Below, piece by piece: positions 17,665-17,829 of a DNA stretch of 64,000 nucleotides (position 1 is the stretch's first letter; each line of letters begins with the position of its first letter). The translations under genes were made by a program, and so were the position numbers. The notes under the pieces are model-generated. The model was given only the letters and a program-made list of their open reading frames with translations. It did no database searches and was not told the DNA's origin. The DNA comes from Escherichia phage SholemSchwarzbard. Where the stretch lies: the sequence record PP925840.1; one strand, written 5' to 3'.

Positions 17665-17829
17665 TTACTCTTCTTTTTCTTTAGATTCCTCTTTTTTCTT
17701 TTTAGGAATCTGTTCAGGACCTTTATTTACTACAGCACCTGACGTTGTTCCAGTGGAGATATTTTCAGGATTACCACCTGAATCTCCAGCTACCATATCT
17801 TCTTTAATAAATTCTTTATATGTTTTCAT
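17665..17829 (-). CDS. small protein with capsid-targeting-sequence-like N-terminus (MKTYKEFIKE), 54 aa
   Basis: hand-translated; AGAGG SD 6 nt upstream; N-terminus matches MKTYQEFI(A/T)E of the two internal proteins at 62-63 kb. Confidence 0.5.
   Translation of the reverse strand: MKTYKEFIKEDMVAGDSGGNPENISTGTTSGAVVNKGPEQIPKKKKEESKEKEE

Follow-up and report, generated by a model that had tools for sequence, protein, structure and literature searches.

The 64,000 nucleotides of Escherichia phage SholemSchwarzbard DNA analysed here (record PP925840.1; hereafter the window) contain, on the minus strand at 17665..17829, an open reading frame of 54 amino acids plus a stop codon (MKTYKEFIKEDMVAGDSGGNPENISTGTTSGAVVNKGPEQIPKKKKEESKEKEE). 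The frame belongs to a run of minus-strand genes in the order 41, dmd, 61.4 (tifA), sp, 61.2 (adfA), 61.1 and 61. Gene 41 (19311..20738) encodes the replicative helicase, dmd (61.5; 19070..19252) the inhibitor of RnlA, and sp (61.3; 18457..18750) spackle; all three are open reading frames named from annotation, in the case of sp that of a related record. The 85-residue ToxN inhibitor TifA (18811..19068, coordinates transferred from WilhelmHis) matches Pfam DUF7279, and the 208-residue anti-DarT factor A, AdfA (17831..18457), matches Pfam PF23813 (E=5e-133); the function of the former and the name of the latter come from bioRxiv 10.1101/2022.04.14.488369. Gene 61 (16634..17662) encodes a DNA primase of 342 residues, as annotated in T4 and in the 98%-identical WilhelmHis. 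An earlier sequence-only reading of this DNA had listed dmd, sp and an unassigned 208-residue protein between 17665 and 19252: dmd and sp are indeed there, the unassigned protein is AdfA, and tifA lies in the same interval. Three proven anti-toxin genes (dmd, tifA and adfA) are thereby placed within 1.4 kb beside 61.1.

These genes leave little space between them. A single nucleotide separates the stop codon of 61.2 from the ATG of 61.1, and two separate the 61.1 stop codon (TAA, 17665-17667) from the ATG of the primase gene at 17662, with the last 61.1 codons (AAAGAAGAG) overlapping the expected place of the primase ribosome-binding site. On the other side of the primase gene, dam is absent between genes 56 (15847..16458, minus strand) and 61, where T4 carries it; its position is taken, as in WilhelmHis, by an open reading frame for a 66-residue hydrophobic protein on the opposite strand (16437..16637, plus).

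The 54-residue product differs from that of T4 gene 61.1 at two positions (52/54 identical), and the T4 record labels its protein 'gp61.1 hypothetical protein'. On this identity we assign the frame as the Tequatrovirus orthologue of T4 gene 61.1, and the surrounding 2.1 kb is a Tequatrovirus segment with 98% identity to phages such as vB_EcoM_FT and WilhelmHis. The protein matches PHROG 1823 from end to end (residues 1-54 on profile positions 1-54 of 54, E=7e-34) and also PHROG 2086 (E=2.6e-16), a longer form described below.

The protein can be divided into three parts. [quoted passage not shown] Codons 11-42 (17704..17799; DMVAGDSGGNPENISTGTTSGAVVNKGPEQIP) specify a conserved core homologous to the N-fist of mature gp23* (66-91) and the start of its N-arm. 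Codons 43-54 (17668..17703; KKKKEESKEKEE) specify a Lys-rich tail. The earlier description of everything after the decapeptide as a 44-residue low-complexity charged peptide suits the tail, residues 43-54, but not residues 11-42, which are a conserved and specific sequence.

The decapeptide had been singled out for its near identity to the N-termini of two internal head proteins, and this likeness is real. One of the two is a 157-residue protein beginning MKTYQEFITE (62322..62795, minus strand), which matches the 'internal virion protein' family PHROG 3155 (E=6e-102). The other is a 105-residue open reading frame product beginning MKTYQEFIAE (62812..63129, minus strand; PHROG 3966). Both genes lie directly downstream of the lysozyme gene e. 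When every ATG in all six frames was considered, only three starts in 64 kb matched the internal-protein decapeptide at 6/10 positions or more: those of the two proteins beginning at 62795 and 63129, and that of 61.1, at 8/10. Over their first 30 nt, 61.1 and the 157-residue protein gene are the same at 27 positions.

In T4, internal proteins are sent to the prohead core by this capsid targeting sequence (CTS), which is then cut off by the protease gp21; on its own the CTS brings foreign proteins into T4 heads, and the amber-suppressor work of Mullaney and Black assigned targeting mainly to residues 4 and 7 and processing to residues 8 and 10 (reviewed in PMC9026906). The 61.1 peptide has all four determinants (Y4, F7, I8 and E10), Y4 and F7 being those found in IPIII and in the internal proteins of the window. 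Its departures from the internal-protein decapeptide are confined to K5 and K9, outside these positions, and K5 occurs naturally in an IPII orthologue that begins MKTYKEFIAE. Judged by these residues, the 61.1 N-terminus is a canonical capsid-targeting-type decapeptide. Spacing is the same in the CTS of the internal proteins (Y4-x-x-F7-I8-x-E10) and in the gp23 residues on the P-side of the cut (F59-x-x-F62-L63-x-E65), which suggests that the CTS may imitate the cleavage element of the capsid protein itself.

The likeness to gp23 extends well beyond the decapeptide. BLASTP aligned 61.1 residues 2-38 with T4 gp23 residues 57-93 (16/37 identical, E=1e-8). The Smith-Waterman score of the pair was 80, whereas shuffled sequences scored 29.1 ± 4.5 and none of 2000 reached the observed value (z=11). 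Conversely, a query with gp23 residues 1-151 retrieved both PHROG 1823 (E=5.7e-10) and PHROG 2086 (E=7.6e-8). Finally, hhalign of 16 family members against gp23 N-termini from six genera gave 98% probability (E=2.2e-13, 51 columns), pairing 61.1 residues 1-48 with gp23 residues 53-103. Distant family members bridge the gap between the two sequences (for example ...SIVEAEISGDAGGSASNIASGQNSGNVV...).

The register of this alignment is precise. Mature gp23* starts at A66 (PDB chain 5vf3, 456 residues, begins AEIGGD), and its L63-T64-E65|A66 therefore lines up with I8-K9-E10|D11 of 61.1. Residues 11-36 of 61.1 correspond to residues 66-91 of gp23*, the limits of the N-fist given in PMC7136217. The two proteins have the motif GD-G...NIA-G-TSGAV...GP in common, and the Lys-rich tail of 61.1 aligns with gp23 R100-R101. 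As the alignments read, residues 1-48 of 61.1 are a paralogue of gp23 residues 53-103, and the putative 61.1 cut site is homologous to the site at which gp21 matures gp23. The part apparently copied runs from the end of the cleaved-off delta-piece across the gp21 cut site and the 26-residue N-fist into the N-arm, of which it takes in the first basic residues.

The homology is confined to gp23 residues 53-103. Both the A and P domains of the HK97 fold and the T4 insertion domain are missing from the 54-residue protein, so 61.1 is no shell subunit. A Pfam search with 61.1 gave no Gp23 match. A profile search of 1.84 billion proteins with the 61.1 alignment returned 52 representatives, all of them short or long forms of 61.1, and no full-length gp23 at E<=1e-3; the link to gp23 therefore rests on the targeted comparisons above. 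Some 61.1 homologues in GenBank and UniRef carry the labels 'major capsid protein' or 'major capsid domain-containing protein' (for example MH809535, NC_027349 and MN580668), and from these record labels it seems that annotation pipelines had already picked up the similarity. With a gp23-like segment this short, we regard the labels as over-annotation. Our literature search found no paper on the similarity between 61.1 and gp23.

We also compared cognate and non-cognate pairs of 61.1 and gp23 from six phages of six genera (T4, CC31, kaaroe, GomatiRiver_11, Acj61 and KP27; Acj61 is poorly registered, a 2-residue insertion having been removed by hand). Cognate pairs had 97 identities and non-cognate pairs a mean of 95.8 (permutation p=0.36). 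Since cognate pairs are no closer, there is no sign of gene conversion or of lineage-specific mimicry of gp23.

A tblastn search found the core of 61.1 in 1493 phage records, with hosts that include Escherichia, Klebsiella, Aeromonas, Acinetobacter and Vibrio. Two architectures occur. In the short form (50-70 residues) the core follows a CTS-like start and is itself followed by a K/R run. The long form (about 155-160 residues) opens with a conserved, mostly helical domain of about 108 residues, after which come a hydrophobic-x-E motif and the N-fist-like core that it shares with the short form; examples are found in CC31, Acj61 (1168-1647 of the retrieved locus), KP27 (1144-1632) and Vibrio phage XZ1 (2183-2662). 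The AlphaFold2 model of the long form (PHROG 2086; mean pLDDT 62) predicts a helical N-domain and a disordered core. This N-domain had no Foldseek match in the PDB at E<=0.001 and no Pfam match, and no relative of it is encoded within the window.

Across short and long forms alike, A14, G15, D16, I24, G27, T29, G31, G37 and P38 are invariant. Glu10 is invariant in the family alignments of 61.1. In 46 of 47 cluster representatives, both forms included, a Glu stands 1-2 residues before the M-V-A-G-D core, and two positions upstream of that Glu 36 of the 47 have I, L, V, M or F. The K/R run follows the core in nearly all members. What is conserved is a gp23(53-103)-like unit in which aromatic-x-x-F-hydrophobic-x-E leads up to the cut site, with the N-fist motif and then a basic run beyond it. 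Among 13 short-form genes pN/pS was 0.30 overall and 0.20 in the core, with synonymous sites saturated. The 61.1 peptide itself is therefore under purifying selection.

The earlier reading had placed the frame next to the primase gene. All loci examined, from Tequatrovirus, Krischvirus, Karamvirus, Slopekvirus, Lasallevirus, Schizotequatrovirus and an Aeromonas phage, have 61.1 either between helicase gene 41 and primase gene 61 or alongside them. RB49-like phages also have the family, and in these, as in Slopekvirus and Aeromonas phages, extra open reading frames stand between 61.1 and the primase gene.

The decapeptide also occurs elsewhere. A degenerate DNA search for its K5 variant (MKT[YF]KEF-x-x-E) found more than 120 environmental viral contigs among the matches listed from IMG/VR, and in these matches the motif is almost always at the first codon of an open reading frame (for example at 9471 and 6037 on the plus strands of two contigs, L066 and L065, and at 266 on the minus strand of a third, L114). 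Among the same matches, the exact decapeptide of T4 61.1, MKTFKEFIKE, also starts unrelated proteins. The commonest bearer listed is a protein of about 162 residues from the S-adenosylmethionine lyase family (PF23780, E=2.7e-19); an ART-PolyVal ADP-ribosyltransferase (PF18760, E=1e-23) is also listed, as is a DPBB lytic transglycosylase (PF03330). To judge from these proteins, the decapeptide seems to serve widely as an address label on injected enzymes, and its presence on unrelated enzymes would fit a portable targeting signal.

Four marine-type contigs encode small proteins of 58-65 residues that start in CTS-like fashion, have an E|D junction, are rich in Gly in the middle and carry a Lys run (L051, 8613-8798, minus strand; L082, 1455-1652, L146, 12604-12786, and L152, 1431-1607, plus strand). 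They sit 0.4-3 kb upstream of a T4-type primase gene. We considered these proteins as 61.1 homologues and rejected them: architecture and neighbourhood are alike, but the core is not detectably homologous (E>=10).

When is 61.1 expressed? A single good promoter-like sequence, of the early sigma-70 type (TTTACA-17-TATAGT, 10/12 with TG), lies upstream of dmd at 19282..19310 on the minus strand, and is the likely start of a dmd-to-61 transcript. No late (TATAAATA) or MotA-box promoter was found nearer to 61.1 than this site. Time-course proteomics of T4 infection puts the 61.1 RNA in the early class and gives no protein class for it, while all four upstream neighbours (61.2, sp, 61.4 and dmd) are quantified. 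A mass-spectrometry study of T4 heads built its cleavage logo from 9 head proteins; the portions of its text and supplements accessible to us neither name these proteins nor mention 61.1. Because 61.1 yields a lone good tryptic peptide, which becomes semi-tryptic after a gp21 cut, absence from T4 proteomics is weak evidence. Searches of the literature found no functional study of 61.1, and no report of it in proheads or virions, where the earlier reading had envisaged a packaged, injected peptide.

The analysis establishes homology to gp23, the register of the cut sites, conservation across the family and purifying selection. Our preferred explanation of these properties is that the 61.1 peptide is recruited to the prohead core and, bound there, serves gp21 as a substrate, a proposal we hold tentatively and at a little under an even chance. 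According to PMC9546572, residues 66-105 of gp23 form a disordered stretch in the interior of the unexpanded prohead, probably on the core, and the N-terminal region of gp23 is thought to touch the scaffolding core. The N-fist is disordered and internal before expansion, and outside afterwards (PMC9958956; PMC9546572). The gp23 segment faces the core and the CTS targets that same core, and it is for this reason that we propose recruitment of 61.1 to the core and cleavage after Glu10. The part of the long form that is homologous to gp23 66-105 is likewise predicted to be disordered, which supports the proposal.

The peptide would be made from the early dmd-to-61 transcript and persist. It would then bind the prohead core in the manner of the gp23 N-terminal region and the internal proteins, through aromatic residues 4 and 7 and perhaps through its Lys run against the proteins of the core, which are acidic. 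Cleavage by gp21 after Glu10 would release a 44-residue peptide that starts DMVAGD, its new N-terminus at D11 appearing in tryptic terms as DMVAGDSGGNPENISIGTTSGAVVNK, with EDMVAGD...NK as the uncut counterpart. This product might leave with the scaffold fragments through the capsomer pores, be kept as a minor Lys-tailed, DNA-associated internal peptide, or be used in assembly. In any particular one of these downstream roles we place much less confidence than in recruitment and cleavage. Several observations count against core recruitment, among them the missing protein class in T4 proteomics and the silence of the head study's accessible portions on 61.1. No late promoter lies near 61.1, and only early transcription is on record. 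The long form has the module at its C-terminus rather than its N-terminus, so an N-terminal signal was not the ancestral mode. Moreover, a signal without a cargo is an odd design unless the core segment of 61.1 has a role of its own.

The main alternative to recruitment by the core is that 61.1 acts in the cytoplasm as a mimic or decoy of the gp23 cleavage region that blunts abortive-infection responses. It could do so by offering stray gp21 a competing substrate that absorbs its activity, or by antagonising a host sensor that recognises gp21 activity or the gp23 N-terminal region. Such a function would suit an early gene inside the 'anti-TA island' with dmd, tifA and adfA (bioRxiv 10.1101/2022.04.14.488369) and a peptide with an authentic-looking gp21 site. 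T4 gp21 cuts an LxE-containing loop of a CD-NTase and thereby activates CBASS (PMC12991175); the action of the protease on cytoplasmic targets is therefore real, and it is sensed. We nevertheless think a decoy unlikely, because 61.1 keeps a fixed position and extends from phages of Escherichia to those of Vibrio and Acinetobacter, unlike host-specific counter-defence genes. It has no similarity to known anti-defence proteins in Pfam, NCBIfam or PHROG, and an early mimic of a trigger might just as well set the sensor off. The sequence-only reading had drawn attention to counter-defence genes in this region; for 61.1 itself the neighbourhood gives only a weak hint of such a role, and its conservation across genera, unlike that of dmd, tifA and adfA, makes it look more like a housekeeping gene. 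We rejected a decoy for Lit/Gol in particular: the homology ends at about gp23 residue 103, and the invariant gp23 stretch just beyond, which we take to contain the Gol region, has no counterpart in 61.1.

Very unlikely, in our view, is that 61.1 modulates head assembly as a free N-fist-like peptide that competes with or replaces gp23 N-termini. It would occupy core sites unused by gp23, or empty N-fist docking sites near the vertices or portal, and so tune nucleation, head length or expansion. There is structural room for this: the N-fist touches four subunits and helps to build the Soc sites (PMC9958956), the N-fists of five portal-facing subunits are disordered (PMC7136217), and contacts between the gp23 N-terminus and the core affect head length (PMC9546572). 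In addition, both T4 and an Aeromonas phage have in this early cluster gene 40, whose product is a chaperone of head-vertex assembly. Set against this, we met no mention of unassigned or extra density in the accessible parts of the T4 capsid cryo-EM papers (PMC9546572 and PMC7136217). Nor do 61.1 and gp23 show lineage-specific co-variation in the six genera (p=0.36), and the presence of the family in RB49-like phages means that it is not bound to one capsid decoration.

The position between or beside genes 41 and 61 in seven phage groups, together with early transcription, could instead reflect an accessory role in the primosome, with the likeness to gp23 an evolutionary relic. We consider this highly improbable: in a relic one would not expect purifying selection to maintain the register of the cut site and the N-fist motif, 61.1 has no domain of a nucleic-acid enzyme, and the gene order of T4-type core modules is conserved in general anyway. 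We give hardly any credence to the last alternative, an inert peptide whose translation alone counts because it feeds ribosomes to a weak primase start, since the 1-2 nt junctions on either side of 61.1 and the primase ribosome-binding site expected in its last codons would suit such a leader, but its amino acids are conserved while synonymous sites are saturated (core pN/pS 0.20) and other open reading frames separate it from the primase gene in RB49-like, Slopekvirus and Aeromonas phages.

Returning to the prohead core, we can also formulate a wider proposal, quite unlikely to hold in full. Here the 44-residue peptide would be an overlooked head component of T4-type phages, a free N-fist that would ride the scaffold into the prohead and, once cut by gp21, dock on the shell or be carried with the DNA into the next host. 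At the same time the CTS, derived from or mimicking the F-x-x-F-L-x-E of gp23, would be a general address label by which diverse T4-like phages mark injected enzymes. What can be said more firmly, from the alignments, is that 61.1 is a conserved mini-paralogue of the cleavage-site and N-fist segment of gp23 with a canonical targeting-type decapeptide. The open reading frame has long been known as hypothetical, and its reading as a gp23 mini-paralogue is, as far as we have found, new. T4 head assembly is among the best-studied of assembly pathways, yet 61.1 has been conserved there without an assigned role. If it is a substrate of gp21, the prohead core gains a component. In that case a portable targeting signal would also become tied to the capsid protein's own cleavage element; the CTS is already in use for loading foreign proteins into T4 nanoparticles. 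Whether 61.1 is structural or a decoy also bears on how the anti-toxin island, with three proven genes adjoining, is to be read, and database labels that call a 54-residue peptide a major capsid protein are hereby corrected.

How does 61.1 compare with known systems? The closest are the T4 internal proteins IPI, IPII and IPIII and their T-even variants, with which it shares the decapeptide MKTY-x-EFI-x-E, including residues 4, 7, 8 and 10, and a basic, Lys-rich product; both types are encoded in the same phage. Unlike them, 61.1 lies outside the internal-protein locus. Where an internal protein delivers a folded effector, the putative mature part of 61.1 is 44 residues, predicted to be disordered and homologous to gp23. 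The internal proteins are hypervariable, whereas the 61.1 family is conserved across genera, and many phages have the homologous module on the C-terminal side of a domain of about 108 residues. With gp23 itself, 61.1 appears to share a gp21 maturation site followed by the N-fist segment, the cut site being in register, but it ends in a Lys run where gp23 runs on into its invariant stretch.

Small proteins of the T4 head offer a further comparison. gp67, gp68 and the internal peptides II and VII are small, core-associated and processed by gp21, and some of the peptides stay in the head. None of them has sequence similarity to 61.1, and the genes for gp67 and gp68 belong to the late head cluster 20-67-68-21-22-23, unlike 61.1. 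The propeptides of gp24, Alt and gp21 resemble the 61.1 decapeptide as short terminal peptides with I/L-x-E, the motif that gp21 cuts, although the cut in 61.1 is a predicted one. Those of Alt and gp21 show that C-terminal propeptides exist (PMC9026906), which bears on the long form of 61.1. In gp24, Alt and gp21 the propeptide is attached to a large functional body, whereas the body of 61.1 is an N-fist-like peptide only. With Dmd, TifA and AdfA, 61.1 has no link in Pfam, NCBIfam or PHROG, and our literature search found no report of inhibitor activity for it; what it shares with these three inhibitors is co-location.
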